This document shows, one piece after another, positions 14,040 through 63,110 of a DNA stretch of 64,000 bases. The stretch comes from Pirellulales bacterium. Lineage in GTDB: Bacteria; Planctomycetota; Planctomycetia; Pirellulales; JADZDJ01. Position numbers and translations under genes: made by a program. The notes under the pieces were generated by a model, which ran no database searches, was not told the DNA's origin, and saw only the letters and a program-made list of their open reading frames with translations. The stretch spans positions 1,783,462-1,847,461 of the forward strand of contig OY970289.1 of the NCBI GenBank assembly GCA_963716135.1, given 5' to 3'. Positions within the stretch are counted from its first letter, which is position 1. The number at the start of each line of letters is the position of its first letter.

Positions 14040-15252
14040 ATGGAAGAGCAAGTTTCTCAAACCGCCGACGAAGAGCAGTTTGAACTCCGCATTGCCAAGC
14101 TCGAGGAGCTGTCCGCTGAACTGAAGCAGCTCGAGCAGTCGCTCGGCTCTGGCCAGGAAGGCCATCAGTCCGACACTCCGCCATTGGCCCGCCGCCGGGC
14201 GCAACTGGTGGCCAAGGAAGCACGGCTGGAAGAGGAGATGGAACGCTTGGAAGCGCGCCGCCAGCTCAGCCGCATCCAGCGCCGCCGCATCGCCGGATGG
14301 CTGAAAACCCAACGCAACGAGTTGATCCAAGAAGCGCGAAACCTTCCAGCGAGAATCGAAGCATGTCCAGCAGCAATTGCGCCGCGAACGAGCCCGTTGG
14401 GATAAAGATCGCGAAGAATTTGAGGAGCTCCGTCGGACCTTAGAAGCCAACTCCGAAAACGGCTCCACCGTCAACATTGAAGAGCTAAGCCAGTTGCAAT
14501 CCGACCGATCGGCCCTCAACATGCGGGTGCAGCAATTGGAGCACCAGTTGGCCGAGGCAGAGCATCGGCTGGCTGCTCAGTCTGAGGGGCAAAATACGAC
14601 TGAAATCGACGACCTGCAGCGCCGCTTTGAACTGGCCATCGACGACGTTCGCGAACTCAAACACCGCAACGCCGAACTCGAAGAGGCGCTGGCTGAAATT
14701 CAATCGCTCGGCGGCGACGCGGGTTCCGCCGTCAACGGCCGCGATTGGAACGCCACGAAATCCAGATTGACCGCGCTGTTGAATCAGGGTGAACAGGACG
14801 AATCCATCGACGCCAACGATCGGCTGACGGTCGAAGGCGCCATCCGCATCACTGATGACATCGTCGCCCAACGAGACGAAGAAATTGTCGCCCTCAAGGA
14901 ACAACTGGCGCAGCAATCCGGCGAACCCGCCGAACCGGGCGCCGCCGCAGCGTCCAACGATCAACTCTTCAATCAAGATGACATCATTCGCCAAGAGCGC
15001 GAACGACTGGCCGCGCTGAATCAAGAACTCCGCGAAAAGCTCCGACAAGCTGAAGTCGATCTGTCCGTTCAACGAGCCGGCCTTGCCCGCGAACGTGCAC
15101 AATTGCAGGAAAAGCTGCGAATCGTCGAAACCGAACGGGAAGAATTGGCGGCGCAGCAGCCGGTCAATCCGGCCGCCGCTGGGGGCAAGCCAAAAAAACC
15201 TGCCCGCCGTTGGATGGAACGGATGGGCTTGAAAGAGCAGGACCAGGAATAG
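14040..15252 (+). pseudogene. Long coiled-coil protein, reading frame broken once (~14335-14340)
   Basis: The first part, from ATG 14040, reads '[33 protein letters not shown]...NELIQEAR'. The heptad-rich sequence continues in the +1 frame as 'ETFQRESKHVQQQLRRERARWDKDREEFEELRR...' (track ORF 14377..15252, open from 14326). The function is unknown. Confidence 0.6.
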
Positions 15253-15835
15253 CAGTTCCAAGCTGCCGGCCAACTGCTAATCGCTCTCGCGCGTCGCGCA
15301 CTTTGTCCGCTTCCAGATGGTACACCGCCATGCAGCGGTCTTCAGGGCTTCGCAGCTCGTGAATCGTAAAGACCCCCTCCACCGCCACGGGATGCGTGGT
15401 GAAGTCGGTTGATTTGCCCGGCGCCATCTCTACGACGATGCAGTCGTACAGCGCCGCTCCGGGGCCGAAGCAGCACTCCATGTTGTCGCGCACCAAAACA
15501 AACTGCGTCAGCCCGCTTTGCTGAAAGCTGGGCAGAATATAGCCCCGAATCCGAATCGGCATGTCGTGCAGCTTTTCGATCGCCGGTGTGAGCATCGAGC
15601 GCACAAACGGCTGGTCCTTCTTGATGTCGAACTTCACCGTATCGAAGGTGATGTCGCGCACTGCTTGCGGTTGCGCATCGTGCGGCGGATCGGCAACACT
15701 TCCCGAAACCGGCGGAAGATTGCTTCCTGCCGCCGCCGGCGCAGATCGATCCGAACACCCCGCGCATTGAAATGCAGCAGCCACGACCACCATGGCGCCA
15801 ATCGCAAACCACAGTTTCGCTTCTGCGTTCTGCAT
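15164..15835 (-). CDS. DUF3299-like lipoprotein (paralog B)
   Basis: The track ORF is trimmed to ATG comp. 15833-15835: 'MQNAEAKLWFAIGAMVVVAAAFQCAGCS...IRIRGYILPSFQQSGLTQFVLVRDNMECCFGPGAALYDCIVVEM...'. It shares the G-Y-x-x-P...F(V/L)LVRD...CCFG core with the upstream paralog. It carries a 44-aa tail past the point where the paralog stops ('..QVR*') and overlaps the convergent coiled-coil gene by 89 nt. Confidence 0.72.
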   Translation of the reverse strand: MQNAEAKLWFAIGAMVVVAAAFQCAGCSDRSAPAAAGSNLPPVSGSVADPPHDAQPQAVRDITFDTVKFDIKKDQPFVRSMLTPAIEKLHDMPIRIRGYILPSFQQSGLTQFVLVRDNMECCFGPGAALYDCIVVEMAPGKSTDFTTHPVAVEGVFTIHELRSPEDRCMAVYHLEADKVRDARERLAVGRQLGTAIPGPALSSPSVPSNGGQVFLACPQRRPD

Positions 15836-15856
15836 TCTGCCTTCTGCTTTTCGCAG
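15818..15856. repeat. Purine-word array, family F (GCAGAAGGCAGAA on the coding/minus strand)
   Basis: + strand 'cgcttctgcgttctgcattctgccttctgcttttcgc' fills the 23-nt spacer and gene ends between the two DUF3299 genes. Related arrays lie at 17818-17850, 52372-52412 and 60880-60912. Confidence 0.55.
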
Positions 15857-15858
15857 CC

Positions 15859-16601
15859 TCACCGCACTTGAGCATCGTCCATGTGGTAAAACACGACCCC
15901 CTTCGCATCCGGCGCGTCGTAAGGATCGGTCACGTGAAACGTTCCGGCCAACTTGAACAGCTTGCTGGAAAACGCAACTCCCGCCGGATCCGCAAGCTGT
16001 ACCAAAATACGATCCGTCAATTTCGGATTGCCCCCGAAACAGCAACTGCCTTGATCGCGCACCAGCAGAAACTGCGTGATGCCATTTTGCCGCTGACCCG
16101 GGTAGACATATCCCTTGATGAACACCTTCTTGCCGTCCAGCGATTTCGCGTCGGGCGGAATTCTGTCAGGCGGTTCGTCGGGCAACGGCTGCAGAATCGA
16201 ATAATCAATCCGCTCGTAGCCTTCCGGCACCTCGGTGGCATAGATGTATCCCAGCCGCGCGAAGCCGCCGGCCCAAAACAAAACCGCCAGCACGGTTCCA
16301 GCAATCGCCAGTCCGGCGCCGGTGTACTCGCCACGATGCGTGCGAATGGTTCGCAAGGCCACGATGCCCAGAATCACGGCCGTCAGCGGAATCAGACCAA
16401 GCCACCAGTCGAACATCGCCAATGGCGACAAAATGCCCAGCGCCAGCGCCGCCACCGCCGATGACGATAGAGCGCGATATTCTTCGGCGGGATCGAAATC
16501 GTCATCCTGTTCGTTGCGCGCGAGAACAACGCAGTCCGCGACAACGTTTCATCGCGCGGAGGCTCGGCGGCTAGTTCGGCAGGTGTTTGTTCGATGCTCA
16601 T
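15859..16601 (-). pseudogene. Membrane-anchored DUF3299-like protein (paralog A), probable frame break near 16515-16545
   Basis: The body is track ORF 15859..16455: '...LGILSPLAMFDWWLGLIPLTAVILGIVAL...VFIKGYVYPGQRQNGITQFLLVRDQGSCCFGGNP...'. Its frame stays open upstream ('NEQDDDFDPAEEYRALSSSAV') but has no start codon. An ATG at comp. 16599-16601 ('MSIEQTPAELAAEPPRDETLS...') sits 6 nt after the upstream gene's stop in another frame. Confidence 0.65.
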
Positions 16602-20320: not shown

Positions 20321-21902
20321 ATGGCCCAAATGCTCGATCTTTCCCGGCATGAAATCGACGCGGAGTTCGCCGTGCTCAATGCGCCCCCGGCGCCGCTCTA
20401 TGAAGACGCCGTCATTCTCGAGCACGCCGCCATCGCCGACAGCGGCGCGCTGATCATCCGCTCCGGCAAGAAAACCGGCCGCAGTCCGCTGGATAAACGC
20501 ATCGTCGATAATCCCGACAGCTCCGGCAGCGTGTGGTGGGGTCCGGTGAACATCAAGCTCGACGAGCACAGTCTTCGTCATCAATCGCCAACGCGCCATC
20601 GACTACCTGAACACCCGCGAACAACTTTACGTGGTCGATGGCTTCGCCGGCTGGGATCCTCAATACCGCATCAAGGTGCGAGTCATCTGCGCCCGGGCCT
20701 ACCACGCCCTGTTCATGCACAACATGCTCATTCGCCCTACGCCCGACGAGATGGCCACCTTCGGCGATCCCGATTACGTGATCTACAACGCCGGCCAGTT
20801 TCCCGCCAATCCGCACACGCAGCAGATGACCTCGCGCACCAGCATCGATATCAGCCTGGAACGCCGCGAGATGGTCATCCTGGGCACCGAATACGCCGGC
20901 GAAATGAAAAAGGGCGTGTTCACGCTGATGCACTACGTGATGCCCGGCCGCGGCGTGCTCTCCATGCATTGCAGCGCGAACGAAGGAGATGCCGGCGACG
21001 TGTCGCTGTTCTTCGGCCTATCGGGTACCGGCAAAACCACGCTCTCCGCCGACCCGCGGCGGCGGCTGATCGGCGACGACGAACATTGCTGGAGCGACGA
21101 AGGCATTTTCAACATCGAAGGCGGCTGCTACGCCAAGTGCATCAATCTCACGCGCAATAGCGAACCCGAAATCTACGACGCCATCCGCTTCGGCACCGTG
21201 CTGGAAAACGTCGTCTACGACGAGGAATCGCGCGCCGTCGATTTCGACGAGCGCCGCCATCACCGAAAACACCCGCGCCGCCTATCCGATCGAATATATC
21301 GCCAACGCCAAGGTGCCGTGCGTCGGCGGCCATCCGCGCAACATTATTTTTCTCACTTGCGATGCCTTCGGCGTGATTCCGCCGGTCAGCCGACTGACCC
21401 CCGAGCAGGCGATGTATCACTTCCTCAGCGGCTACACAGCCCGTGTGGCGGGCACGGAAGAGGGCGTCAAGGAGCCGCAGGTGGCTTTTTCCGCCTGCTA
21501 TAGCGCCGCCTTCCTGGTGCGACATCCCACGGTCTATGCGCAACATGCTGGCCGATCGACTGCGGGTTCATCACGACGCAAGCCTGGCTGGTGAACACCG
21601 GTTGGTCCGGCGGCGCAGTCGGCGCCGGCTCGCGCATCAAGCTGGCCTACACCCGCGCGATCATCGATGCCATTCACAACGGCACGCTCGGCGATGCTCC
21701 CACCCAGCGCGATGCCTATTTCAAGCTCGATTACTGCACCCGTTGCCCGAGCGTGCCCGATTCCATTTTGCAGCCGGCCGGCACATGGAAAGATCGGGCG
21801 GCCTACGAAGCCACGGCGAAAAAACTCGCCGGGTTGTTCCGCGAAAACTTCGCCAAGTATGCCGCCGACGCCGGCAAGGAAACTCAGTCCGCCGGCCCTT
21901 AG
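20321..21902 (+). pseudogene. pckA: Phosphoenolpyruvate carboxykinase (ATP), reading frame broken four times
   Basis: Conserved PckA sequence is spread over frames 2>0>1>2>0. The pieces are: 'MAQMLDLS...[16 protein letters not shown]' | '[37 protein letters not shown]...[42 protein letters not shown]...VDFDE' | '[48 protein letters not shown]...[10 protein letters not shown]' | '[12 protein letters not shown]' | '[31 protein letters not shown]...'. The breaks fall at ~20572, ~21250, ~21543 and ~21582. Confidence 0.9.
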
Positions 21903-24440: not shown

Positions 24441-25559
24441 CTGTTCTGATTGCCTAGAAGATCGACCGCCGATTGCGCGATCACTTGTTCTTCATCCGTC
24501 GGAATGACCCACACGGTCACGCCGGCCTCGGCGCGGGAAATCGTTTGCGCCGACTTATTGTTCTGTTCATCATCCAAACTGATGCCCAGGAACTGCAAGC
24601 CCGTGCAAATCCGATACCTTATCTCGGCGCATGTTCGCCGATGCCGCCGCTAAACACCAGCGTTTCGATCCCGTTCATCGCGGCGGCCAAAGCGCCGATC
24701 GCTTTGCGTATCTGATAACAATAAAGATCAATGGCTTCCGCCGCCCGCACGTCGCTTGCCTGGCGCGCCATGAGGTCGCGCATGTCAGAGCTGGTTTCCG
24801 AAATGCCCAATAGTCCCGATTCGTGGTTCACCATCTGCTGGAATCGCGCGGGCGTCATCTTTTCGCTGCGCGCAGATAATCCACCAGGCCCGGGTCCAGA
24901 TCGCCGCTGCGCGTGCCCATCGGCACACCCGAGGCCGGCGTGAAGCCCATGGTGGTGTCGATGCTCTTGCCCCCCTGCACTGCCGCCAAACTCGAGCCGC
25001 TGCCCAAATGCGCCAGCACCACGTGCCCCCCCGCCGCTTTCGCGCCGGCGAGTCGCGCCAACTCTTGCATCAAATACGTGTACGACAACCCATGAAAGCC
25101 GTACCGTCGCACGCCTTGAGCATGGTATCGCCGCGGAATCGCCAACCACTGCGCCACCCGCGGCAGGTGTTCGTGGAACGCGGTATCGAAGCAAACCACT
25201 TGCTTCCACTGCGGCTGCTTCTTTTTCACGGCCTCGATCAGCGCGATTTCCCGCGGCAAATGATCCGGGTCCAAAAGTGCAAGCTGCCGCAACTCGGACA
25301 GAAGCTCCTCGGTGACCATCGCCGGGGCAAAGTGCCGCGGTCCCCCATGCACCAGCCGATGCCCCACGGCTGAAATCTCTTGATCGCCCACTTTCTCCTC
25401 CACGGCTCGCAAGAGGTCTAAAGCCGAGTCGTTGGATTCAACCCGATCGATGGCCCCCGAGCGAATTCGCGTCAGCCCCGATTCCGCCACAAAGACCGCG
25501 AATTTGATGCTCGAAGAGCCGGCGTTGAGCGTTAGAATTCGTTTCGTCGCGTCGCTCAT
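24437..25559 (-). pseudogene. ackA: Acetate kinase, reading frame broken twice
   Basis: The pieces are: 'MSDATKRILTLNAGSSSIKFAVF...VGHRLVHGG...VCFDTAFH...RRYGFHGLSYTY...AHLGSGSSLAAVQGGKSIDTTMGFTPASGVPMGTRSGDLDPGLVDYL' | 'ARSEKMTPARFQQMVNHESGLLGISETSSDMRDL...ETLVFSGGIGEHAP' | 'EIRYRICTGLQFLGISLDDEQN...[14 protein letters not shown]'. The breaks fall at ~24865-24875 and ~24623-24627. Confidence 0.88.
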
Positions 25560-25606: not shown

Positions 25607-26978
25607 ATGCCTCGTTCGCCCATCGACCTTCGTGCCGACGCCCTCCGCATCTGGCAAGCGGGGTTAGCAGCCGTCCGCTCCGAGCGGTTGATGTCGGCTC
25701 ATGTTCGCCTGGACGCGGGAAAGTTAATCATCGGCACAAATTCGCCGGAAATCATCGATCTGATGAACTTCCGGCGGATTGCCGTAGTCGGAGCCGGCAA
25801 AGCCGGGGCTGGAATGGCCGCGGCGCTGGAAGAGATTCTCGGCCCGAAGCTCATGGCGGAAAAACAGCTAAGCGGCTGGGTAAACGTGCCGGCCGATTGC
25901 GTGCGAAAACTGCAGCGAATTCACCTGCACGCAGCGCGGCCACCGATCGCCAATGAACCTTCGTCCGAAGGCATCGCTGGTGCCGAAGAAATCCTGCGCA
26001 TCGTTTCCTCGCTGGGTCCGGACGATCTGTGCGTCGTGCTGGTTTCCGGCGGCGGCACCGTGCTGCTGCCCGCGCCGATCGAAGGCATCGCTCTGTCCGA
26101 CCTCGTCGCTGTCACACGATTCCTCAGCGCCGCCGGCGCCGACATCCGCCAACTCAATACCGTGCGCAAACAACTCAGCCGGATCATTGGCGGCGGCTTG
26201 GCCCGAGCCTGCGCGGCCGGCCGCCTGGTGACGCTCGTCATTTCCGACGTACTGGGCGACCCGCTGGATTTGATCGGTTCTGGACCGACCGTGCCCGATT
26301 CATCCACGCCGCAACAATCGCTCGGCATCCTGAAACATTTCGATCCGCAGAGTCAATCTATTCCGGCACCAGTCCTCGAAGTTCTGCGCAAAAATCAGTG
26401 AGGCCAACATTCCTCATTCCCCGCTCCCCATTCCACATTTGTCTCATCACGTGATCGGCAACAACGCCACGGCGGTGGAAGCCGGTGCCCACGAAGCCGA
26501 ACGTTTAGGTTACCAAGTCACCACCGCCTGCGCTCAAAAGTTGGAGGGCGAAGTGGAACCAATTGGCCGCCATTTGGCCGACATGGCCGCGCACTTGCGC
26601 TGCACGCCCGGCGCCAAATGCTTCATCAGCGGCGGCGAAGGCACGGTGAAACTGGCTCCCGAGCACGAACGTGGGCTGGGCGGCCGCAATCAGCAGACGA
26701 TCCTGGCGGCCCTAGGGCGCCTGATTGAAAGTGACCCGCGCGGCATCGCAATTCTCTCCGGCGGCACCGATGGCGAAGATGGTCCGACCGACGCCGCCGG
26801 CGCATTGGTCGATGCCGCGGTGATTCGGCGGGCGCAGCAATTGAATTTAGATCCCGCTGATTTCCTCCGCCGCAACGACGCTTACCATTTCTTCGAGCCG
26901 CTGGGCGCGCTGATCAAAACCGGCCCCACCAACACCAATGTCTGCGACGTGCGCGTGGTGGTTACCGCCGGCGCATAA
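25607..26978 (+). pseudogene. Glycerate 2-kinase / hydroxypyruvate reductase-like (DUF4147 + MOFRL), one frame break (~26396-26400)
   Basis: The N-domain has 'RIAVVGAGKAGAGMAAALEEIL...VVLVSGGGTVLLPAP...LNTVRKQLSRIIGGGLA...VISDVLGDPLDLIGSGPT'. The MOFRL domain has 'FISGGEGTVKL...GGRNQQTILAAL...ILSGGTDGEDGPTDAAGALVD...TGPTNTNVCDVRVV'. The in-frame TGA at 26399-26401 is bypassed by removing one nt ('..RKNQ|EANIPHSPLP..'). Confidence 0.85.
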
Positions 26979-27032: not shown

Positions 27033-28470
27033 CTAGTCCCACCACCACTGATCCTTCCGCAGGTTCTTCAGATCGACGTCTTCCCGCGCCTTTTCGACCT
27101 TCCCATCTTCGTCGCGCAACAGGTTCGATTCCCGCAGCGCCATTCTCGGTTCGATGTGCACGCCGCCGCCGATCGGCGTCATGAGCGTGCTGCCTTTGAA
27201 CACGCTGGTCACGGCCGATTCGACTTGCTGCGGTGCCGTGAGCGTTTTCACCGAGTACACATCCTCGTCGCCGAAGGGCATCTTCCAGCCGGCCTTGTCG
27301 TAATAGTCTTTTTCCTGAATGAACGCGGCCACGACTGCCAGGTCGATGCAGTTGCGCAACTGCGAGTACACCGGAATCACATTGGCCAGTTCCGAATATT
27401 TCTTCGTGAACGCTTCGGTGAAAGCGCGGCTGGCGGCGTCGATGGCGCTCGATTTCACGCGCGAGCCGTCGGCCGACACAATTTCGTCGGCGTTCACCAG
27501 CTTCACGCCGTTGCCGACCATCTCCATTGCCAGGCCGTCGGCCGTTTCGCGCACGCACTCATAGTCGGGCACAAAGTACCAGCGCTGCACGCGCGTTGCG
27601 GCTGACCATGCGCGGATTCGCGCGATCGACGTAGCTGGCCAACTGCTTCACCGGCGGCCTTTCCAGACCGATGCCGATCAGTTTCATGCGATAGTCGGCT
27701 TCGACCAGGACCTGGGCGAAGTGCGTCGAGGCAGGCACGCCGGTGATGCGCACCGTTTGCAATCCCAGGCTTTCCTTCAAGCCGCTAACAATTTCTTGAG
27801 TTTGACTTTGCGCGGTGGCGGCCGAAAGGCGCGAACCGGTTTGCTTGAGGAAATCCTGCATCCGCTGCAAGCCCTCCTTGGTCGGGTCGATCGAGCAACT
27901 GATCACCGGCGTATCGTTTTTGCCCCCCGGCGGAAACGCGCGCAGCGCGGTTACCAAATCGTCCAATTGCACCACAGGCTTCCCGCTATTCAGCCCGCGC
28001 ACGCGCCCCGATAAGTCTGCCGCCCAGCCTTCCGCGGGTCCCGCAATTACAATGTCCTTCGTGTCCGGGTAATAAAACACATATTGCACCCGGGTCAGCC
28101 CGGCCAGGTTTTTCATTTCGTCGGTCGGTTTTTCGCCGGCTTGCAATTTGTCGCGCAGCGCCGCGTCGAGGCGAGTCAGCGAAATCTTTCGCATCGGGCT
28201 GGGCTTGGCGAGCTTCGGATTCAACTGCGCCTTGGCGGCCGCCATCCGCTGCCACATCAACTGGCCCGATTGATCCATGTAGATCTGCGTGCGCAGAACG
28301 CCGTCGGGATCGACCATCACACCGGCGATGGGCGTCGTGGAAGTTACGACAGTTGTGACCGTAGTGCCGGTGGTGGTTGTCTGAGCCTGGGCCAGAACCG
28401 CGCCCAGCGCCAGAAACGTCAGAATGAGCCACAAACGAACGGCATAAACAAACAAGCGGTGCGGAGCCAT
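27033..28470 (-). pseudogene. DUF1598-family secreted protein, one frame break (~27589-27594)
   Basis: ATG comp. 28468-28470 has AGGAG upstream. Signal peptide is 'MAPHRLFVYAVRLWLILTFLALGAVLAQA'. The sequence continues across frames as '...YVDRANPRMVSRNA|VQRWYFVPDYECVRETADGLAMEM...'. The C-terminus is '...KNLRKDQWWWD'. Confidence 0.75.
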
Positions 28471-28728
28471 GAACCGAATTCTCCTGGTGCCTTCCCGCGT
28501 CGGTGTCCGGTACGCTCCCACCCCTGTTTCGCGCAAGTTGCACATCACCGCGGTGGGAGCGCGGGTTTGACGATGTAAAAGGATAGGTTTTTGATGACCC
28601 CTATCCCGGAAGATTTAAGTCTAATAACGGGAAAATGGTAAAGCAAGAAATGTGGGGGTTTTACGGCGTTTTTTGAAGCCCTGGACCGGTACCCCCTGCG
28701 GTTTTGGCGCTGAAGCTATGATTGAGAA

Positions 28729-30180: not shown

Positions 30181-30310
30181 ATCGCCTGTTTGTGTCCTAA
30201 GCCGAGCAATGGCGTTGCGATTTAGCAGGCCAATGACTAACTTTGTACGCCCCTCCCCCATAAAATACTGACAATTGACGACAGACCACCGCCCGCTGAC
30301 TGCCGACCGC

Positions 30311-32116: not shown

Positions 32117-32117
32117 C

Positions 32118-32195
32118 GGGTGGCACTGACAAGCGCCGCGCTTGTCAGTGGAAATCTCCTTCACCCCACTGACAAACCGGGTTTGTCAGTGCCAC
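32118..32195. repeat. Double-hairpin TIR element, family C, second copy
   Basis: 'gggtggcactgacaagcgccgcgcttgtcagtgg...cactgacaaaccgggtttgtcagtgccacc' starts 2 nt after the lepA stop. Confidence 0.7.
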
Positions 32196-32308
32196 CGAAG
32201 CGTTCCACTCGCTCTTGTGAACTCCGCAAAAAACCCGTAACTTACGGGCTCTTCCCGCGCCCGCAATTTGGATTTCTGCGCCCTGCATCCTGAATCCTGC
32301 GCCCTGCA

Positions 32309-33328: not shown

Positions 33329-33351
33329 CCTGCGAAATGGCTCGATCCAGA

Positions 33352-43945: not shown

Positions 43946-43965
43946 CCACGGTTACGATATAGCGC

Positions 43966-43993
43966 TTGACACATATAGTCTATAAGCTATAAT
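43966..43993 (+). promoter_or_regulatory. Consensus sigma70-type promoter of the TA module with embedded palindrome
   Basis: TTGACA (43966-43971) - 16 nt - TATAAT (43988-43993). The spacer contains the palindrome TATAGtCTATA (43974-43984). The first ATG lies 2 nt and the second ATG 8 nt after the -10 box. Confidence 0.6.
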
Positions 43994-43995
43994 TC

Positions 43996-44669: not shown

Positions 44670-44674
44670 CCGCT

Positions 44675-44708
44675 CCCTCTCCCCATGTGGGAGAGGGCTG
44701 GGGTGAGG
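44675..44708. repeat. Family D palindrome acting as terminator-like hairpin after the antitoxin
   Basis: 9-bp stem CCCTCTCCC (44675-44683) / GGGAGAGGG (44689-44697), then 'ctggggtgagg'. It starts 6 nt after the stop. A sister copy lies at 6045-6078. Confidence 0.55.
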
Positions 44709-44711
44709 AGT

Positions 44712-44838
44712 TCGCCGCGGAAATCGCTAGACGTCGCGGAGGGCGCAATTCCTCGTGGTGCGTCAGTAGGCCCGTGGTGAGTTGTTCAACGTCCACGCGC
44801 ACTTTACACGAAGTGGTGGCTCGATTTCAAGGGATTCT
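44712..44838 (+). repeat. Direct repeat copy 2 upstream of the HEPN-motif gene
   Basis: '..ccgcggaaatcgctagacgtcgcggaggg..gttcaacgtccacgcgcactttACACGAAGTGGTGGCtcgatttcaagggattc'. I estimate ~75-80 percent identity to copy 1 by eye; this was not computed. Confidence 0.6.
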
Positions 44839-44910
44839 TGAGTGACTTTCTCTTCACTTTGTTATATTTGGCAGCGGACGAATTTTGTTCACGAAAGATT
44901 GTGGTGGAGT

Positions 44911-46245: not shown

Positions 46246-46431
46246 TTTTTCGTCATCGCGATAACCCTGGGCGGAGCCCGGGGCTAGTGGGCGTTGCGGC
46301 GGCGGGCGGATTTGCGGCCGGGGCGGTAGCCACTCGGCTGGGCTCGTGACGGGCCGGCGACGCGCGCGGCGGAATCTCCCGGTGTAACCGGGGGCTGACG
46401 GGTCAAACGGTGTGGATTGCCCATTGGTTGT

Positions 46432-46465
46432 GCTCCGGAGGCTGTTAGCCTCCGGCTATTTTTTT
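46432..46465 (+). terminator. Rho-independent terminator closing the islet
   Basis: Stem GCTCCGGAGGCT (46432-46443) / AGCCTCCGGC (46447-46456), followed by TATTTTTTT (to 46465). The orientation fits the + strand only. It overlaps the last codons of the convergent ygiQ. Confidence 0.7.
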
Positions 46466-50971: not shown

Positions 50972-52418
50972 GTGAAGCAGAAAGCCTGGTCGGGAGTATT
51001 CAGCGAGGCGACGGATCGCCGGGTCGAGCAGTTCACCGAAAGCATCAGCTTTGACCGGCGATTGTACGCGCATGATGTAACTGCATCGATTGCGCATGCC
51101 CAAATGTTAGTCACTGTCGGCCTTATCACTGCCGAGGAATGCCGACAGATTGAGCAAGGATTGGGCGCGATTCGCCAAGAGATTGAGCAAGGTAAATTCG
51201 AGTTTCGCTCGGAGCTCGAAGACATTCATCTGCACATCGAGCGGGCGCTGGTGGAGCGCATCGGCGACGTCGGGCGGAAGCTGCATACGGCGCGAAGCCG
51301 CAACGATCAGGTTTCGACGGATCTGCGGCTGTGGTGTCGGGAGGCGATTGACCGAATTGATGCGGCACTGGCGGGCGTGCAGCGGGCGTTTGTCGAGCGA
51401 TGCGACGTCGATCGGGACGTGATTTTGCCGGGCTACACGCACATGCAGCGCGCAGCCGGTGCTGGCGCCGCACTACTGGTTGGCCTACTGCGAAAAATTC
51501 GAGCGTGATCGCCAGCGATTGGCGGATTGCCGAAGGCGAGTGAATGTGTTGCCGTTGGGGGCGGCGGCGCTGGCGGGCACCAGTTTGCCCATCGATCGCG
51601 AAGATGTTGCGCGGCGGTTGGGCTTTGTCAACGAGCGCGGCCAACCGCAGGTGATGAGCAACAGCATCGATAGCTCCAGCGATCGCGATTTTGTGATCGA
51701 GCTGGCGTTTGCGCTCTCCGTCGTGTCGGAGCATTTGAGCACCTGGGCCGAGGAATGGATTTTGTGGAGCACGGTCGAGTTTGGGTTTTTGAAATTGCCG
51801 CAGGCGTTTTGCACCGGCAGTTCGATCATGCCGCAGAAGATCAATCCCGACGTGCTGGAATTGGTGCGCGGCAAGACGGCGCGGGTGATTGGCAATTTGC
51901 AATCGCTGTTGGTTTTGGTGAAGGGGTTGCCGTTGGCCTATAACCGCGATCTGCAGGAGGACAAAGAGCGGATTTTTGATTCGGTCGACACGGTGTCGGC
52001 GTGTTTGGAGATTGCGGCGCCGCTGGTGGCGGGGGCGGAATTGAACAAGGCGGCGATTGCGGAGAAGTTGGATCGCGGATATTTGGATGCGACCACGCTG
52101 ATGGAGGAATTAATTCGGGGCGGCACGCCGCAGCGGACGGCGCATGAGATGGTTGGGAAGTTGGTGAAGGCAGCGATGGATCAGGGAGTGCGATTGGCGG
52201 ATTTGCCCAGCGAATTATTGGATGGCGAGCTTAAGGATGCGCTGGGGGTGAAGAATGCCGTGGCGCGATTTGTCAGTTATGGATCGACGGGGCCAAAGGA
52301 AGTTGCGCGGCAGGTTCAGATTTGGAAAGAGAAATTGACACCTGAAGGCGGAGTTCGGAAGGCGGAAGGCGGAACGCAGAAGACAGAAGGCAAACGGCAG
52401 AAGGCGAAAAAAACATGA
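50972..52418 (+). pseudogene. argH: Argininosuccinate lyase, one frame break (51447-51455) and a repeat-encoded C-terminal tail
   Basis: GTG 50972 has AGGAG 5 nt upstream. The pieces are: '[43 protein letters not shown]...[18 protein letters not shown]...[10 protein letters not shown]' | '[17 protein letters not shown]...GSSIMPQKINPDVLELVRGK...'. The conserved QRAQPV is restored by adding GC to the (GC)n run. The last ~25 aa 'PEGGVRKAEGGTQKTEGKRQKAKKT' are encoded by word arrays E+F. Confidence 0.9.
52344..52412. repeat. Composite purine-word array (family E then family F) forming the argH 3' end
   Basis: 'gAAGGCGGAGTTCGGAAGGCGGAAGGCGGAacGCAGAAGACAGAAGGCAAACGGCAGAAGGCgaaaaaaac', followed by ATGA (argH stop / next start). 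Confidence 0.65.
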
Positions 52419-54645
52419 GCAGGCATCTTCGATTGGCTTTGGGCGCGGTCGGCTGGGCGATTTTCATGACCGCGGTCGCTGACGCGCAAAATCGTCCAGC
52501 GCCGCCAAAACCGGCGGCCGGCGATATCATGCCGGTGATCGAAAAGCACGATCCGGCAGTAGATACGATTGTGGAATCGAATCCACAAACGCCGCGCGAA
52601 CTATTGCGGGCGGCGGCAATCCTGGCCGATTTGGATCGCGCGGATTTGGCGAAACAATATTTGCAGAAGGTACTTGCCGCGAAATTGAACGACGAGGCAC
52701 TGACCGATTTGGCGGCGCACGTCGATGCGGATTTGCTGCTGCGGATGTCGACGAACGAGGCGCTGGCGCCGGAGGGGCACCAGGTTGCCGAGGCCGTGCT
52801 GAGCGCCGCGGCCAAGCAGGCGCACGATCCCAAACGGCTGGCGGCGGCGATCGATAAGCTGAATGATCCATCGCGGGCGGTGCAACTGCATGCGGTTGGC
52901 ACGATTCTGGCCGCGCATGATGATGCCGTGCCGAGCCTGACGTTGGCGCTGGCGGATGAAAAGCGCGCCGCGGTGCGGCCGCTGATCAAGGAAGCGCTGG
53001 TGCACATCGGGCCGGCGGCGATTGCGCCGCTTTCGGCGGCTTTGCAAAGCGACAATGCGGCGCTGAAGCTGCAAATCATCGACGTGCTGTCGCAGATTGG
53101 GTTGCGGGAGGCGGTGCCATATTTGGCGGCGCCTGCGACGGCGGAAAAAAGTCCGCCGGAGGTGCGCGAGGCAGCCCGGTCGGCGCTGTTGGAAATCCAG
53201 AATATCACGCGACCGACCGCCGAAGCCGCCGCGAAGCTGTTGATGGCGGAGATCGACAAACACCTGAAACACGAACAATTACTGAATTCCGATGCCAACG
53301 GGAACGTGGATGTATGGCGATGGGATGCCGCGGCGGGCGTGCCGGTGCATGAGAAAACGTCGCCGGATCAGGCACATGTGGCGCTGGCGGCGCGGTTGGC
53401 AGACGATTTGATGCTGGTGGCGCCGGACGACTCGCGCGAAGCGAATGTTTTTGGTGAGCGTGCTGGAGGCAGCCGGCAGCGGACAGCAGCCGGAACACCG
53501 TCTGCAGCAGGCTGCGAAGATGGGCGCACCCGGAGGTCGAGGATGCGCTGACGTATGCGATGTTGACCGGGCATGTGCCGGCGGCGATTGCGGCGGTGCA
53601 GGTGTTGGGGACGATCGGCGATCGGTCGTTGTTGGATGCCAATGGCGCCAATCCCCGGCCGTTGGTGTTGGCGCTTGAGCAGCGCGATCGGCGGCTTCGA
53701 TTCGCGGCGGCTGAGGCGATTATGAAGCTCGATCCGAAGGCAGGTTTCAATGGTTCGAGCAACCTGGTCAATGCGCTGGCGTGGTTTGCGGGCACTTCGA
53801 ACACCAAGCGGGCCCTAGTGGCGTTTCCCAACGATGCGGTAGCGACGCAATTGGGCGCAATGCTGGCCACGATGGGCTACGACGCGGACATTGCCACTAA
53901 CGGCCGCAATGCGTTTCTCAAGGCGCTAGCCTCGAGTGATTACGAATTGGTGCTTTTGAGCAGCCGGATCGATCGGCCGCCCGTGTGGGTAGTGCTGCAG
54001 GAGATGCGGCACGATCCGCGGAGCGCACGGCTGCCGGTGATTCTGTTGGGCGAGGACGGTGAGAGGGAATTGGATCATCTGGAAACGTTGGTTCTCTATG
54101 ATCCGTGGACCAAAGTGTTCGCCCGGCCGGTGACGACCGACGGGATGAAGTTTTTTGTCGATCGATTGAACCAGCAAGCCGGCAGTTTTGTGGTGCCGCT
54201 GGAAGAGCGCGAAGAACAAGCGGCGAAGTCGTTGGCGTGGTTGAAGAAATTGAATGAGACGTCGGCGCGGGAATTTGAGATTCAAACGCACGAGGCGGAA
54301 ATTGCCCGGGCACTTTACGTGCCGAAACTTAGCGCGGCGGCGGCGGAATTGCTGGGGATGATTGGCACGCACACGGCGCAGCGGGCGCTGGTGGATGTAG
54401 CCAACCGGCCGGCGACGCCGATGGAAATGCGCGAAGCGGCGGCCGCGGCGTTCAGCCAGAGTGTGCGCAAACATGGAATTCAATTGACAAGTCGCGAAAT
54501 TCAACATCAGTACGACCGGTACAACGAAAGTGCCACCGAAGACGCCGCGTCGCAGCAGTTGTTGGGATTGGTTCTGGACGCCATCGAACTGCCGCGGTCG
54601 CTATCCAACATCTCTCGTCCCTCGTCCCTCGTTCCTCGCCCCTAG
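52415..54645 (+). pseudogene. Secreted HEAT/ARM-repeat protein with a degenerate receiver-like (pseudo-REC) domain, two frame breaks (53448-53452, 53529-53531)
   Basis: ATG 52415 overlaps the argH stop. Signal peptide is 'MSRHLRLALGAVGWAIFMTAVADA'. Repeated 'AV..L...L.D....VR..A..AL..IG' HEAT-like units are present. The sequence continues across frames as '...DSREAN|VLVSVLEAAGSGQQPEHRLQQAAKMGAP|EVEDALTYAMLTGHVPAAIAAVQVLG...'. The REC-like stretch 'ALVAFPNDAVATQLGAMLATMGYDADIATNGRNAFLKALASSDYELVLLSSRIDRPP...LPVILLGED' lacks the phospho-acceptor Asp. Confidence 0.72.
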
Positions 54646-55794: not shown

Positions 55795-57377
55795 TCAACC
55801 GGCGGTTCTTCGCCGGGCGAAGCGCGCGGCCAAGAGTGCTGCGGCGGACAGGGCCAGGCAAATGCTCGCGGGTTCTGGAACCGCCATCAAGGCGAGGTCG
55901 TTGCCGCCGATGAAACTGTTGCCATCGACGTCGGCGAAGTAGGTGATTTGGAACCACAGGCCGTTGGACTCGAGGATCGACCCCTCGGCCGCATTCGCGA
56001 ATTGACCGTTGATGGCGTTCGCACCCTTGTTGTTGATGATGTAATAAATGTCGCCGAGGATGGGGGTGAAATCGCCGGCGAAGAGTTTTAGCGTGGCGCC
56101 GCCGACGGATACATTGCCGTCGATATCCATGCGGTCGTAACCTGTCTCAGGCTGCGAGCCATTGATTCCCATGTCCAATTCCGATTCTTCTTCGAACGTG
56201 AGGTCGCCTTCGATCTCGAATTCCTCCGGGCTGTCGCCGAAAAAGTTTGGCGAATTTGTTTGGGCCCCCGCCGTGCCGCTATAGCTGCCTTGAAAAGTTG
56301 TTTGGCGGCGGATGACAACATCGCCGCCGATTATCGATTGATCGGCAACTTCAATCCGGCCTCCGGCGAGAACGATAGCCCCTGTCGCGGCGCTATGATC
56401 GCCGGAAATGCCGAGCACGCCGCTGAGGACCGTGGTACCGCCGGTATAAGTGGCGGCGCCGGTCAGCAGCCATATGTCGCTGCCGGTTTTGACAATCGAT
56501 GTGGCGCCGCCGGGGCCGTCGGCGATGGAAGCAGCGAGTTTACTCGTGTTTCGCGTTCCAAAGACGCTTGCGGATCCACCCAGCGTCAGCGTGCGCGGAC
56601 CCGAGCCGCTATAAGCGAGAGCCGCCGTGGAATTGAAATACAAGTCGTCGGAGCCATTGTTCAGGATCGTGGCGCCGCCAGGTGAGACGGTGAATTGCCG
56701 ATCGGTAGCATCGCCCACGCCGGTGTATTCGAGCGTTCCGCCTTCGAATTTCAAATTGCTGGCCGCGGCGCTGCTTGCGCCAGGGCGCTATTGCTGCCGC
56801 CGTTGGCCAGCGAGGTGATACTTAGCGTTCCGCCCGCGATGGTGACCGCGCCAGTAAAGGTGTTGGAATCGTTCTTCAAAACCAATTTACCTGGTCCTGC
56901 TTTGGTGAGGGCGCCGGAACCGGAAACGGTTTTGTAGGCCGTCAGGGTCAGGCCGTCGCCGATCGTCCACGTTTGATCCAGCGGGAGCGACACGGTGGTG
57001 TTCAGCCCGGGGAGCCTGTTCGGGCTGCCCGTGACGGTCACGCCACCGCTGCCGATGTTGAATGCGCCTGCAGACTGCGAAATGAACCAAACCGCGTCGG
57101 TGTTATCGAGCGTGACGCCGCCAACAATAACGTTGCCGTTGAGATTGGGTTGATTGGCGATCGTGGCTTGATTTCCGAAAGCTACCGTATCGTTGAACCG
57201 GGCGCCGTCGAACCAATCGCTTGGGCCGTTAGGTGTCCAAGCGCTAGCGGTTGTCCAGGAGGTGGTCGAATCGTTCCACATGTAAGTGGTTTGGGCGCGA
57301 GCGGCGGTCGTTGCCAGAAGCCCAGAGAAGAGAATCGCCAGTGGCGCGGCAAGGCGCTGAATGGAGCGTCGGCTCAT
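55795..57377 (-). pseudogene. Autotransporter-associated beta-strand-repeat protein with PEP-CTERM anchor, one frame break (~56778-56782)
   Basis: ATG comp. 57375-57377 gives 'MSRRSIQRLAAPLAILFSGLLATTAARA'. Repeats include '..GSGALTKAGPGKLVLKNDSNTFTGAVTIAGGTLSI..'. The junction is 'GGSNSAL|GASSAAASNLKFEGGTLEYTG'. The C-terminus is 'MAVPEPASICLALSAAALLAARFARRR' (PEP-CTERM). Confidence 0.8.
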
Positions 57378-57498
57378 TGGCGTTTCCTGGAACCGATTCG
57401 ACGAGGACGAGCGATGCCGCGGACGTGACAAGATTAACAGGAGTTTATACCCGAGCGCGGGGGGAAAGGAAAGGAAAATTTGGGGGATGCGAGAAAGG

Positions 57499-58865: not shown

Positions 58866-60020
58866 ATGAAATTCTTCACTTTTCATTTGATGCCGTGGGA
58901 TCGGTTGCCGGCCGATTTTGAGACGAAGTATGAATCGGCGTGGACGTGGCTGCCCAACAGCGTGTACGAGCCGGAGCATGGGCACGAGTTGTACAACCGG
59001 TATCTGGATGAGTTGGTTCTGGCCGATGAGTTGGGGTTCGACGGCGTGTGCGTCAACGAGCATCATCAGAATGCTTACGGCACGATGCCCAGCCCGAACT
59101 TGATGGGGGCGATTCTGGCGCGGCAGACGAAGCGAGTGAAGATCGCGGTGATTGGCAATGCGCTGCCGCTTTACAATCCGCCGACGCGCGTGGCGGAAGA
59201 GTTTGCGATGATCGACGTGATCAGCGGCGGCCGGTTGATCGCGGGGTTGGTGGTCGGCGGAGGGCCGGAATATTACAGCTTCACGATCAACCCGACGTTT
59301 GCCCGCAGCATGTATCAGGAGGCGGTCGATCTGATCATTCGCGCGTGGACGGAGCCGGGGCCGTTTGAGCATTACGGGAAGCACTGGAAGCTGAAGTATG
59401 TGAACCCTTGGCCCAGGCCGATCCAGCAGCCGCATCCGCCGATTTGGATTCCGGGGGCGGGGAGCAAGGAGACGATCGAGTACGTGGCGGCCAAGCGGTG
59501 GAGCTACATGGGGATTCCGTATTTCCACATCGATTTCTTTCAGCGGAACTTTGATATGTTCCGCAAGAGCGCGGAAAAGAACGGATACACGGCCGATCCG
59601 GAGCAGTTGGGTTGGCTGTTGCCGATTTATGTGGCGGAGAACGATGAGAAAGCGTGGGCGGAATACGAGCAGCACCTGTGGTATTTTGCGCGGAAGCTGC
59701 TGAAGGGGTTGGCGGTGCTGCCGCCGGGGTACACCAGCGTGCAGTCGATCGCGGTGATCAACAAGGCGAAGGACAAATTCCTCACCAACGTGACGACGCG
59801 CAAGCAAGTGGAAGAAGGGGGCTACGCCATTGTGGGCAGCCCCGCTACCGTGCGCGATCGGTTGATCGAATACGTGAAGAAATTGGGCGTGGGAAATTTG
59901 CTGGGGCTGTTCCAGTTGGGGAGCCTGCCGGCGGATTTGACCAAGAAGAATATGACGATGTTTGCGAAGGAAGTTTTGCCGGCACTGCGGAAGGAATTGC
60001 AGCCGGCGTCAGTGGCGTGA
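58866..60020 (+). CDS. LLM-class (luciferase-like) flavin-dependent oxidoreductase
   Basis: ATG 58866. 'ADELGFDGVCVNEHHQNAYGTMPSPNLMGAILARQTKRVKIAVIGNALPLYNPPTRVAEEFAMIDVISGGRLIAGLV' is the typical LLM TIM-barrel N-half. Confidence 0.85.
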   Translation: MKFFTFHLMPWDRLPADFETKYESAWTWLPNSVYEPEHGHELYNRYLDELVLADELGFDGVCVNEHHQNAYGTMPSPNLMGAILARQTKRVKIAVIGNALPLYNPPTRVAEEFAMIDVISGGRLIAGLVVGGGPEYYSFTINPTFARSMYQEAVDLIIRAWTEPGPFEHYGKHWKLKYVNPWPRPIQQPHPPIWIPGAGSKETIEYVAAKRWSYMGIPYFHIDFFQRNFDMFRKSAEKNGYTADPEQLGWLLPIYVAENDEKAWAEYEQHLWYFARKLLKGLAVLPPGYTSVQSIAVINKAKDKFLTNVTTRKQVEEGGYAIVGSPATVRDRLIEYVKKLGVGNLLGLFQLGSLPADLTKKNMTMFAKEVLPALRKELQPASVA

Positions 60021-60065
60021 ATGTCTGAATGTCTAAATGACTAAATGTCTGAATGATTTGAATTC
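60021..60065. repeat. Tandem word array, family B (AATGTCT / AAATGAC), in the LLM-hydrolase spacer
   Basis: 'atgtctgaatgtctaaatgactaaatgtctgaatgatttgaattc'. It shares CTAAATGACTAAATG with 3498-3555. Confidence 0.5.
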
Positions 60066-60854: not shown

Positions 60855-60855
60855 C

Positions 60856-60912
60856 CGCGAAGGCGCGAAGAGCGCGAAGAAAGCAGAAGGCAGAAAGCAG
60901 AAGGCAGAAGGG
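60856..60912. repeat. Composite purine-word array (GCGAAG words then family F)
   Basis: 'cgcgaaggcgcgaagagcgcgaagaaaGCAGAAGGCAGAAAGCAGAAGGCAGAAGggg' lies between the convergent hydrolase and TPR genes. Confidence 0.6.
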
Positions 60913-60918
60913 GCCGAA

Positions 60919-63110
60919 CTAGCGGTGGATCGTGGCGGGGTGCTTGTCGGCGGAGGTGTCGAACTTGGCGGCCATATCGGAAAAGTTGCGGGCCTCCTGG
61001 GTATGTCCCAGCGCCTGATGCATGGCGGCGAGGTTGTTGTAGGGCACGGTTAACGATTTGGGTTCGATCAGACTTTGGTGCACCGCCTCCTCGATGTGCT
61101 GCATGCCGGCATCGGTGAGTTCCAGCGCCACTTTGCGTTGGCCCACTTCCCAATAGCTGATGCCCATGCTCACGAGCCATTCGCCATAGTGGCCTTGTTG
61201 AGCGTGCTGCGTGGGCGGGATGGGCCGATCCAAGAGCGGGAATGCTTTTTCGTACCAACTGACGGCGGTTTTGTGATCGTTGCGGCGCACGGCGTGCATG
61301 GCGCCGACGCGGTAATAAATGGAGCCGAGGCGGAAAACATCTTCAGGATTTTCGCGTCGGCCTTTGGCGCCTTCTTCGAGATAGCTGGCCGTCAGCGTGG
61401 CATTGTCGAGCGCATGGGCGCGGGGCCGCGGAGCTGGTCGGCGGTCAGGCCGTCGGAAAGCGCGAGGCCTAATTCCCACTCCAGGCGGTGTTTTCGCCAA
61501 GGATCGTTGGCCGCGGCAATCAACTGCTTGCCTTGCTGCAGTGCCTGGCGAGTCCAGGGGAGCGGATCGATTTTGCCCTCGGCTGCGGCGCAGGCGGCCA
61601 GCGCCGCGCGCGCACGCGCAGGCGGAGCGCGGGATCGGCTGATTCGTTGTTGATCAAGTCTTCGGCAAAGGCGGTGGCGCGGTCGATCCACTTGGGAACG
61701 ATTTGCGGTTTTTGGCCGTAAACGCCGCAGGCGATGTCGTTGGCGGCGCCCAGGTGCGCGTCGATCAGAACCAGCTTGGCGGCGCGGCGCACCGTGGCGC
61801 GTTTGTCGTGCGCCAGTTGATCGGCGGCTTTGATGGCGGCCAAATGCTGGTCCAGCGCGAGCTTGTAATCGTGCGCAGGGCTGTCGGCGATGAGTTGTGC
61901 CAGTTGGCACAAAGACTTCGACTTGAGCTCCAGGTCGTCTTGATTGGCCGAGGTTAGCACCTCTTTCGTCTCTTGGGCAGCTTGATCGTATTTTCCAAGG
62001 CAGCCAAGAATTTCGCAGCGGAGCAAGCGGTAAGTCGGTTGATTTTCGTCGGCGGCCAGGGCCGATTGGCAAGCCGCCAGCGCCTCGTCGTAATGCGCGC
62101 AGGGATAACAGCAGCTTTGCCTGCAGGTAGTGAGCGCGGGCGTGCTGGGGCTGCTGCTGCAGGACATATTCCAGATCGGCCTGGCTGCGGCGGCATTGCG
62201 TGTCGAGGTTCATCTCGGCCCGCAGCACGAACGATTCATAATCGATTTTTTCCAGCGAGACGTGCGAGACGAGCTTGCCGCCGGGGGCATAGGTCAGCAG
62301 CACGCCGCGCTCGGGATAGGCCTGGCCCAGCGGCTGGCCGGTTTCGTCGGGAATGTTGACCGGCCGGACGTCGGCGATTTGCAGTTGCTTGGCCAAGACG
62401 GCGGTGCTGAGGGGTTTGGCCAACTGCACGACGATCGATTTCACGACGTTGTCGTTCAGCGTGACGTCGATGCGCGGAAACGACTCGAGCTTATAGCTGC
62501 GGACATTTTCGGCGCCGGGTTCGGAGGCGACTTTGCCTTCGCCCCAGAGTTGAATTAATTCTTCGGTGGTGGTTTTGCCGGGCTGCACGCCGTTGAAAGC
62601 AGCGGCATCGATCTTCACGCCAGCCGGCGGCGGCAGATCGTCGAACGTGGCGGCGAACGGACCGGAATTGGTGATGTCGTCGCCGCCGACAGTATCGTTT
62701 TCGTCGGGAGCGCTTGCGGGCGGAGTTTCAGGAATTGCCTCGTGCGGTCGATCGTGGTGGGAAGAACCGACTTTGACGGACTTCGGGACAGTGGGGCCCT
62801 CGTCGGCCAATTCGGGCGACGTGGCGTTCGTCGGCATGGGGGCGGATTCTTCAACCGCGCTACGCTCTTCAGCGGCTTCTGAGTGATGCGGCGTTTCGCT
62901 GGATTGCTCGATGCTGGCCCGGGGCAACGGAATATCGCGGGGTGCTTGGGCGTCGGAATCGGCGGAATCCAGTTCGTCTGCGGCCGGCATCGGAGCGGAT
63001 TCGCGGGCCAAAAGCGGCAATCCGCAGCAGCAGAAGTGCAGCGACGCGGCCATGAAGACGACGCGCATCGCGGGCCATAATAGCCGACGCGAGAATGTGG
63101 TTAACCGCAT
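60919..63110 (-). pseudogene. Large secreted/anchored TPR-repeat protein, three frame breaks (~62091-62100, ~61603-61620, ~61414-61425)
   Basis: ATG comp. 63108-63110 has AAGGAGG upstream. The pieces are: 'MRLTTFSRRLLWPAMRVVFMAASL...QQQPQHARAHYLQAKLLLSLR' | 'HYDEALAACQSALAADENQPTYRLLRCEILGCLGKYDQA...ADPALRLRV' | 'AALAACAAAEGKIDPLPWTRQALQQGKQLIAAANDPWRKHRLEWELGLALSDGLTADQLRG' | 'HALDNATLTASYLEEGAKG...YYRVGAMHAVRRNDHKTAVSWYEKA...'. It is spread over track ORFs 61392..63230, 61520..62167 and 60919..61500. Confidence 0.75.

Follow-up and report, generated by a model that had tools for sequence, protein, structure and literature searches.

Reading-frame breaks in 14 genes of the window

The window, i.e., the whole stretch of 64,000 nucleotides of Pirellulales DNA that was analysed, contains 21 reading-frame breaks in 14 genes, and every one of those listed in an earlier reading of the letters alone (hereafter the sequence-only reading) is present in the deposited sequence. 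As claimed there, the conserved protein carries on in an adjacent frame at all the listed places, which we saw in three-frame translations, and blastx searches against the ORFs of relatives' loci gave consecutive subject coordinates in different frames for pckA, ackA and yjbQ, the ackA switch being supported by ~30 intact homologues. Base-level alignments to relatives, among them the syntenic sister Pirellulales assembly contig_36362 (L082/83/85/86; ~88–91% nt identity to the window), located 17 breaks to the base, and the TPR (three), PATR beta-strand and PEP-CTERM junctions were located by protein alignments. With 21 minimal edits of 1–2 nt each, the 14 genes become uninterrupted ORFs with 0 internal stops, and ackA, yjbQ, ygiQ and argH then give a single unbroken Pfam match across each junction. 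The events comprise nine gains of 1 nt, ten losses of 1 nt and two losses of 2 nt, with none larger.

The first break lies in a coiled-coil gene (14040–15252, + strand), where alignment to L086 reveals a 1-nt insertion, CAAG[A]AGCGCG (14329–14334); a 403-aa ORF results once base 14332 is deleted. L086 has its own +1 in this gene, at a GCGC 20 nt upstream of the window's break. The DUF4190/DUF3299 gene (15862–16601, − strand) has lost 1 nt, most likely in a GCGCGCG tract at 16516–16522, a position deduced within a possible range of 16490–16545 from the N-terminus MSIEQTPAEL, which stands in the other frame and is conserved with L081 (“MSxxQxPAEL”); one inserted base gives a 247-aa ORF with the Pfam domains DUF4190 and DUF3299. 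Four 1-nt insertions interrupt pckA (+ strand): GAGCA[C]AGT at 20566–20572 (base 20569, away from GCGC and absent in L081 and L083) and, by alignment to relatives, TTCGA[C]GAGCGCC at 21244–21250 (21248), TATGC[G]CAAC at 21539–21541 (21540), which itself generates a GCGC, and TTCA[T]CACGACGC at 21566–21575 (21571), again away from GCGC. The xfp gene is intact in the window, as had been stated. Two 1-nt deletions affect ackA (− strand), namely CTC-GGCGC at 24624–24627 (24626), where L083 reads GGGCGC and both L083 and L084 have the extra base, and a loss in a (GC)n tract at 24871–24873, where the window reads GCGCGCA, the intact L084 GCGCGCCA and L083 GCGCCA (−2). The DUF4147/MOFRL glycerate-kinase gene (+ strand) carries an extra A in an A5 run adjoining GCGC (CTGCGCAAAAATC) at 26390–26394, rather than the break at 26396–26400 given by the sequence-only reading; its true reading is ...RKISE..., and the L083 and L084 proteins have ...HRKIQ.... 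In the DUF1598 gene (27589–27591, − strand) the insertion is GCA[C]GCGCG (27590), the base being absent in both relatives.

Further along, the FAD monooxygenase gene (− strand) has a 1-nt deletion near its C-terminus, CCGG-CGCGCGCC, at 38078–38080 (38079; alignment to a relative), and the yjbQ/UPF0047 gene (− strand) has one at 39502–39506 (39503), GCG-CCC for GCGCCCC in the relative, located with that relative, L052 and Pfam. In the PEP-CTERM protein gene (41773–43001, − strand), 1 nt is missing from a C3 run at 42441–42443 (sense CTGG[G]TGCC), ~10 nt from a GCGC, and homologues read DGGLG[AS]DGTIV. The ygiQ radical-SAM gene (− strand) reads GGCG-CCAAG at 47944–47946 (47945; GGCGCCC in the relative, with Pfam in agreement), whilst argH (+ strand) has shortened from (GC)4 to (GC)3 at 51446–51453 (−2 at 51448; relative, Pfam). 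The HEAT-repeat gene (+ strand) is broken in a CGCGCG tract at 53431–53437 by −2 or, less likely, +1 nt, and again at 53528–53531 by an insertion, GGGCGCA[C]CCGG (53529), where the relative is continuous (AKMGAPAIEDALTYAML). A 1-nt deletion at 56778–56782 (~56780; sense CTGG[G]CGCAAGC) costs the PATR beta-strand/PEP-CTERM gene (− strand) its invariant SALGAS motif. Finally, the TPR gene (− strand) has an insertion, ATGCGC[G]CAGG, at 62098–62100 (62099), a deletion in GCGCGCG-CACGCGC at 61610–61614 (61613), both located with the relative and homologues, and a 1-nt deletion in the G run of GGGCGCGGGGCC at 61420–61424 (~61422), identical in contig_36362. The sequence-only reading misplaced two breaks by ~10 nt, namely the first HEAT break, assigned to a T5 run at 53448, and the PEP-CTERM break, assigned to 42431–42437, an interval ~6 nt to the left of the actual break.

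About 30% to a third of the genes are broken across the affected 50 kb. Comparison with relatives, possible for ~85% of the window, revealed no further coding frameshift, and the broken genes contain no larger deletions, IS elements or nonsense codons, in keeping with the earlier remark that other signs of decay are absent. The source's own gene call P0147 (319 aa, on a 4,246,306-bp contig) is 100% identical to the PATR fragment, so this break belongs to the deposited record.

GCGC context, sister assemblies and selection

The indels cluster strongly at one tetranucleotide: of the 20 events that can be localised, 17 are no more than 2 nt from a GCGC, where ~2.9 would be expected, such positions making up 9.8% of the window (binomial P = 3.6 × 10−12; mean 2.9 and maximum 11 in 20,000 simulations). 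The three events away from GCGC are those at 20569, 21571 and 42442. That several breaks sit in (GC)n tracts had been recognised from the letters, but this understated a context that is dominant, whereas the short homopolymers named alongside play a small part and the assignment to T5 was wrong. None of the papers searched describes a GCGC-linked indel signature, and the Nanopore errors that have been linked to methylation in print are for the most part substitutions rather than indels.

Two aspects of the distribution deserve mention in their own right. Comparison with a relative found no coding frameshift of the window in 1–14,000 or 28,700–38,000, the gaps that had already been pointed out, and this patchiness is moderately above chance (P = 0.014 when the two largest gaps are tested against the distribution of GCGC sites). 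All −1 events are in minus-strand genes and seven of the nine +1 events in plus-strand genes (Fisher P = 0.0007), which is unexpected under a simple strand-symmetric error model. We count both the patchiness and the strand asymmetry against a reading of the breaks as consensus errors, as we do the three events away from GCGC and the prevalence of substitutions among published methylation-linked errors.

Relatives show the same kind of damage at largely different places. The sister assembly contig_36362 has its own set of ~23 frameshifts, ~19 of which fall at GCGC. Among the genes hit are several whose window counterparts are unbroken (xfp, lepA, fabH, amidase, CMD, luciferase-like and abhydrolase), and its essential tyrS is split within the catalytic core, where GCGC[G]CC has lost 1 nt. 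L081 (contig_71829) and P0151 are likewise fragmented. Shared splits in orthologues had been named as grounds for rejecting the frameshift calls; in our alignments the closest relatives lack 20 of the 21 split sites, and share the one at 61422. There the window and contig_36362 have the −1 in common and differ neither in DNA nor in the frame switch, and eight intact homologues are continuous across the site with no gap. Elsewhere a single site is broken by differing lengths, as at ackA 24872 (−1 in the window, −2 in the relative, intact in L084) and HEAT 53431–53437 (−2 in the window, −1 in the relative). Only 1–2 breaks were seen at the xfp/ackA loci of other lineages, and the heavily affected assemblies all come from one Pirellulales lineage, so that a lineage-specific biological cause is still conceivable. 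We found no independent assembly of the same species, the best PckA match being 88% identical at the amino acid level.

Selection on the broken genes is not relaxed. Across 5,046 codons their dN/dS is 0.116, and neither genome has an in-frame stop there; intact genes give 0.094, and the TPR frame downstream of 61422 gives 0.058. Were the 21 indels neutral mutations, 4–8 nonsense substitutions would be expected (P(0) = 0.015–0.0002), under our own assumption of a substitution:indel ratio of 5–10 and ~4% stop-creating substitutions.

Origin of the breaks

Since nearly all of the breaks are 1–2-base slips at GCGC, as they are in the sister assemblies, they are very probably consensus errors of long-read metagenome assembly and not mutations of the organism, a preference that the sequence-only reading had also expressed and that the motif, the sister assemblies and selection support. 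In the MAG of this Pirellulales (Planctomycetota) member, the consensus would have gained or lost 1–2 bases at about 2% of GCGC sites, most often where a GCGC forms part of a longer (GC)n tract or borders on a short run of C or G, and an error site falling inside a gene would break its frame. The same context-dependent process would act in the sister assemblies, and would thus produce sister breaks at other GCGC sites, at the same site with a different length and, once, with the same length. The most likely cause is a motif-linked basecalling or polishing error, with an altered pore signal at GCGC as the presumed proximate step. This signal could stem from methylated GCGC (HhaI-type 5mC or 4mC), which possibly lies behind the error, or from an intrinsic basecaller/polisher weakness on GC-dinucleotide repeats, either of which may be made worse by locally low depth. 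The platform was presumably Nanopore-only Flye with Medaka polishing, given the size of the contig (4,246,306 bp) that holds the window's proteins and the naming of the relatives' records as contig_NNNNN. Flye/Nanopore MAGs polished with Medaka and named in this manner have been published (PMC12313526), which is consistent with such an origin, a tie to that particular project being a possibility.

The indels do stand in the deposited consensus, and a real and recent multi-gene pseudogenisation, with GCGC/(GC)n tracts acting as mutational hot spots and the frameshifts being fixed, has to be weighed. Possible mechanisms would be dinucleotide slippage, Z-DNA-type or NarI-type −2 events, or end-joining scars after HhaI-type cleavage; the (GC)n −2 events at 51448 and 53431–53437 resemble classical slippage, the strongly affected assemblies are all of one lineage and the TPR break at 61422 is common to two species-level relatives. 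Nevertheless, we consider it very unlikely: housekeeping genes are hit both in the window (argH, pckA, ackA) and in the sister assembly (tyrS, fabH, lepA, xfp), the affected stretch has ~30% of its genes broken but no nonsense codons, deletions or IS elements, and the dN/dS of broken genes equals that of intact genes. Strong purifying selection (0.058) on the frame that follows the shared TPR break is not what an ancestral frameshift would leave, most of the indels are ±1 changes in (GC)2–3 tracts, which are too short for slippage hot spots, and one site can be broken by different lengths in two assemblies (ackA, HEAT). That GCGC sites of this lineage are targeted by a mutagenic process seems extremely doubtful, the candidates being HhaI-type self-cleavage followed by end joining, or (GC)n slippage where the population is deficient in repair; were the indels real, the MAGs would be snapshots of populations in which motif-directed frameshifts build up in many genes. 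A milder corollary of the consensus-error reading, by which the error pattern would be a footprint of GCGC methylation in the lineage, is likelier than a set of real motif-directed indels.

A mixed-population consensus, in which length polymorphisms of co-assembled strains or thin coverage yield inconsistent bases, would make the breaks an artefact of depth or mixture rather than of motif. The patchy distribution, with the two long empty intervals, and the three events away from GCGC would fit, but 17 of 20 events at one tetranucleotide are left unexplained, and the assembly of a different sample has the same motif bias and even the identical error at 61422, which makes this reading highly improbable. 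Programmed recoding (ribosomal frameshifting or transcriptional slippage), by which the split genes would be expressed normally, could draw on the TPR break at 61422, conserved in two assemblies with a conserved downstream frame. However, 21 sites in 14 unrelated genes would need both +1 and −1 shifts, no slippery heptamers were seen in the break contexts, 20 of the 21 sites are private to the window with respect to its closest relatives, and eight TPR homologues require no shift; the intact orthologues effectively refute recoding, to which we assign a negligible probability.

Significance and comparison with known systems

The breaks say nothing new on biology unless orthogonal reads reproduce the indels. 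Their main importance is one of data hygiene, in that annotation of the affected 50 kb would wrongly list about a third of its genes as fragments or pseudogenes, and this would lead to wrong metabolic inference for the MAG in arginine synthesis, gluconeogenesis and the phosphoketolase/acetate pathway. The GCGC association provides a simple, checkable rule to find and repair errors here and in sister assemblies, and suggests that the polishing of high-G+C planctomycete MAGs may have a blind spot, possibly GCGC methylation.

Decaying genomes, such as those of Mycobacterium leprae, Sodalis and recent host-restricted pathogens, combine frameshifts with nonsense mutations, deletions, IS expansion and elevated dN/dS. 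The window resembles these genomes in having many frameshifted genes, metabolic ones included, in a short stretch; however, those other signs are absent and the breaks are motif-bound. Neither relaxed selection with nonsense mutations nor a sparing of essential single-copy genes was found. (GC)n/NarI-type (GGCGCC) −2 frameshift hot spots and simple-sequence contingency loci are generally known sources of frameshifts. Two events in which (GC)3–4 cleanly loses one GC unit (−2) recall them, as does one −1 event inside GGCGCC, whereas 19 of the 21 events are ±1, in very short tracts, and include gains and losses. Contingency loci concern surface or R-M genes; here the targets are housekeeping genes, and the tracts are (GC)2–4 or runs of 3–5 nt, unlike the long tracts, with several units or more, of simple-sequence phase variation. 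The consensus errors of Nanopore-only bacterial genomes and MAGs, at homopolymers, short tandem repeats and methylation motifs, differ in that the motif here is GCGC/(GC)n rather than long homopolymers, on a platform that is itself presumed; like those errors, the breaks are 1–2-nt indels that split conserved genes, recurring at one short motif, in sister assemblies and on very long contigs.

Reading-frame breaks in the deposited record

The sequence-only reading had described 21 reading-frame breaks in 14 conserved genes, an observation that was confirmed in full by translations, blastx, and DNA and protein alignments. At all 21 listed places three-frame translation showed the protein carrying on in another frame, and the GC3 frame plot changed phase at the same places. 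For pckA, ackA (~30 intact homologues) and yjbQ, blastx against the ORFs of the fetched loci gave subject coordinates that stay consecutive from one frame to the next. The indels were placed to the base by pairwise and three-way alignment with syntenic relatives, and the three junctions in the TPR gene, the one in the beta-strand/PEP-CTERM (PATR) gene and the PEP-CTERM junction were settled by protein alignment to intact homologues. Such orthologue alignment had been proposed as a check, and the intact homologues indeed read through the junctions of ackA, TPR (all three), PATR and PEP-CTERM. In the DUF4190/DUF3299 gene the conserved N-terminus sits in the other frame, and the exact base of the break is one that we infer. 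The positions first proposed needed adjusting in three cases: by alignment, an additional A in an A5 run (26390-26394) accounts for the glycerate-kinase break and the first break of the HEAT-repeat gene lies in a CGCGCG tract (53431-53437), which rejects the homopolymer (T5 at 53448) to which it had been attributed, while protein alignment to intact homologues places the PEP-CTERM break in a C3 run (42441-42443). In total, 21 edits of 1-2 nt returned the 14 genes to single ORFs with no internal stops, after which Pfam matches span the junctions in one stretch in ackA, yjbQ, ygiQ and argH.

Six of ten window ORFs were found residue for residue in a public protein collection, on one 4,246,306 bp contig (NCBI and ENA), where the PATR gene's C-terminal fragment has its own 319-aa protein entry (P0147); the breaks therefore belong to the deposited record. 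An intact PATR paralogue (P0152, 51% identical) is located elsewhere on this 4.25-Mb contig. The best intact relatives of the reconstructed PckA were Pirellulales (Planctomycetota) MAGs, the top one at 88% amino acid identity over the full length. Syntenic DNA came from a close relative (L081, ERZ25039558 contig_71829), from four pieces (L082, L083, L085 and L086) of ERZ25039533 contig_36362 (1.08 Mb; 88-91% nucleotide identity, jointly covering ~85% of the window) and from L084 (ERZ1700618; 80-86% nucleotide identity to the window). A search of genome contigs with xfp supplied many intact ackA homologues and, among the matches listed, no close relative (best 78% identical), since xfp has been too strongly conserved and has spread horizontally; when TPR, HEAT, PEP and beta were combined in a chimeric query, only TPR homologues came back.

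Over the ~85% of the window that contig_36362 covers, alignment revealed no further frameshift in the window. The remaining window/relative length differences that are not multiples of three are, inside genes, the relative's own lesions, and the others are intergenic; candidate window frameshifts at 7270 and 41680 (CMD gene) were accordingly rejected as errors of the relative. The two sequences also differ in gene content. Nothing in the syntenic contig_36362 corresponds to the low-G+C island at 43,500-46,650 (50-54% vs ~60%), whose genes encode a Gp49/HigB-like toxin (43996-44358), an HTH antitoxin (44358-44669) and, at 44842-46245, a 467-aa protein without Pfam matches. The relative likewise has no PATR gene at the place syntenic to 55,795-57,380, and it is without the AT-rich intergenic repeats of the type TAAATGACTAAA / AATGTCTGAATG that the window carries at 3,484-3,525 and 60,017-60,065. 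Conversely, a ~5.8-kb bacterial-microcompartment locus (BMC shell, EutN, aldehyde dehydrogenase, DeoC and RpiB), present in L083 (11,424-17,210), L084 and L085, is missing from the window at the corresponding place (30,152-30,286).

GCGC context and strand asymmetry of the indels

Relative to the intact frame, the indels comprise nine +1, ten -1 and two -2 events, the latter in argH, where (GC)4 became (GC)3, and in the first HEAT break, within (CG)n. Among the 20 localisable events, 17 are at most 2 nt away from a GCGC tetranucleotide, as are 9.8% of window positions; 20,000 simulated trials gave a chance expectation of 2.9 on average and 11 at most, and the binomial estimate for the enrichment is 3.6e-12. 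The usual contexts are GCG[C]CC(C), GGG/GG-CGC, GCGCG[C] and [N]GCGCG, and only the events at 20569, 21571 and 42442 fall off the motif. About 2% of the 833 GCGC sites in the window are affected.

Insertions and deletions were unevenly divided between the strands, with all ten -1 events in minus-strand genes and seven of nine +1 events in plus-strand genes (Fisher P=0.0007). GCGCC occurs twice as often on the plus strand of minus-strand genes, which explains part of this asymmetry but not all of it. The sister assembly shows no such split, and an explanation by GC skew or replichore was sought and none found. GC skew does switch from negative to positive at 39,500-40,000, where the cumulative skew reaches its minimum. 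A replication origin or a rearrangement breakpoint would have this polarity, and neither a cluster of DnaA boxes nor a dnaA gene lies nearby. Two stretches (1-14,000 and 28,700-38,000) are emptier of breaks than GCGC density predicts (P=0.014), a pattern that local read depth would most obviously explain.

Consensus error versus pseudogenisation

Real pseudogenisation of these genes keeps a small probability. In the same 55 kb, contig_36362 has ~23 frame-breaking indels of its own, ~19 of them at GCGC. They split ackA, glxK, pckA, ygiQ and the HEAT and FAD-monooxygenase genes as well, and also genes whose window copy is intact (xfp, lepA, fabH, penicillin amidase, a CMD-family gene, a luciferase-like gene and an abhydrolase). 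In its tyrosyl-tRNA synthetase gene, tyrS (L086 612-1894), one base is missing from GCGC[G]CC, which divides the product into pieces of 76 and 351 aa between the HIGH motif and 'GHKPIALVGGATG'; the enzyme is essential, and a break at that point cannot be real. Fragmentation also affects L081 and the contig that carries P0151. Some sites are broken in both assemblies with different outcomes: ackA 24872 is -1 in the window and -2 in contig_36362, against GCGCGCC in the intact L084, and HEAT 53431-37 is -2 in the window and -1 in the relative. At TPR 61422 (a G run after GGGCGC) both carry the same -1 in otherwise identical DNA, and eight intact homologues from other projects pass through without a gap. 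The more distant L084, which belongs to another project, shows no break at any GCGC site compared. This 49.8 kb contig has odd gene calls (a split aldehyde dehydrogenase, a fused RpiB-DeoC and a split xfp), with a few indels of its own in non-GCGC contexts, which suggests a different error profile.

Selection bears on the same choice. In corrected frames, Nei-Gojobori dN/dS between the window and contig_36362 was 0.116 for the 14 broken genes (5,046 codons, dS 0.32), with no in-frame stops in either genome, and 0.094 for genes intact in the window, a pool slightly inflated by one antisense shadow ORF. Constraint downstream of the breaks equals that upstream (second segments of DUF1598, 0.009, and yjbQ, 0.028; TPR segments 2-4, 0.03-0.08). 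Alongside 21 neutral indels, 4-8 nonsense substitutions would be expected and none was observed (P=0.015-0.0002, depending on the assumed substitution:indel ratio). The shadow ORF (411 aa, 444-1,679, plus strand), the first dN/dS entry ('444-1630 +'), has a dN/dS of 1.7 against the relative; the real gene lies opposite on the minus strand and extends past the window start, and its counterpart in the relative is acid-phosphatase-like.

Motif enrichment, sister assemblies and selection thus support the artefact interpretation favored from sequence alone and sharpen it to a GCGC-linked error signature. The simplest account of the breaks is context-dependent consensus error in a long-read metagenome assembly; taken as biology, the 21 breaks are not a real feature.

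Possible origin of the error signature

One cause of such errors could be GCGC methylation in the Pirellulales lineage; alternatively, the basecaller or polisher may have an inherent difficulty with GC-dinucleotide repeats. Nothing relevant emerged when the literature was searched for Nanopore indels specific to GCGC. In a survey of xfp/ackA at 80 further loci, several of them from projects of this kind, only 1-2 breaks were seen, too few to judge GCGC bias platform-wide; this scarcity tilts the choice towards a cause tied to the lineage, for instance methylation, or towards low depth in these bins. What the finding offers is a caution for these related assemblies and a rule for repairing them. 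The 4.25-Mb contig, the naming of the relatives' contigs in Flye style and the many so-named MAGs among the matches listed suggest that the assembly is probably Nanopore-only Flye, polished once with Medaka; Nanopore-only Flye assemblies with single Medaka polishing are described in PMC12313526.
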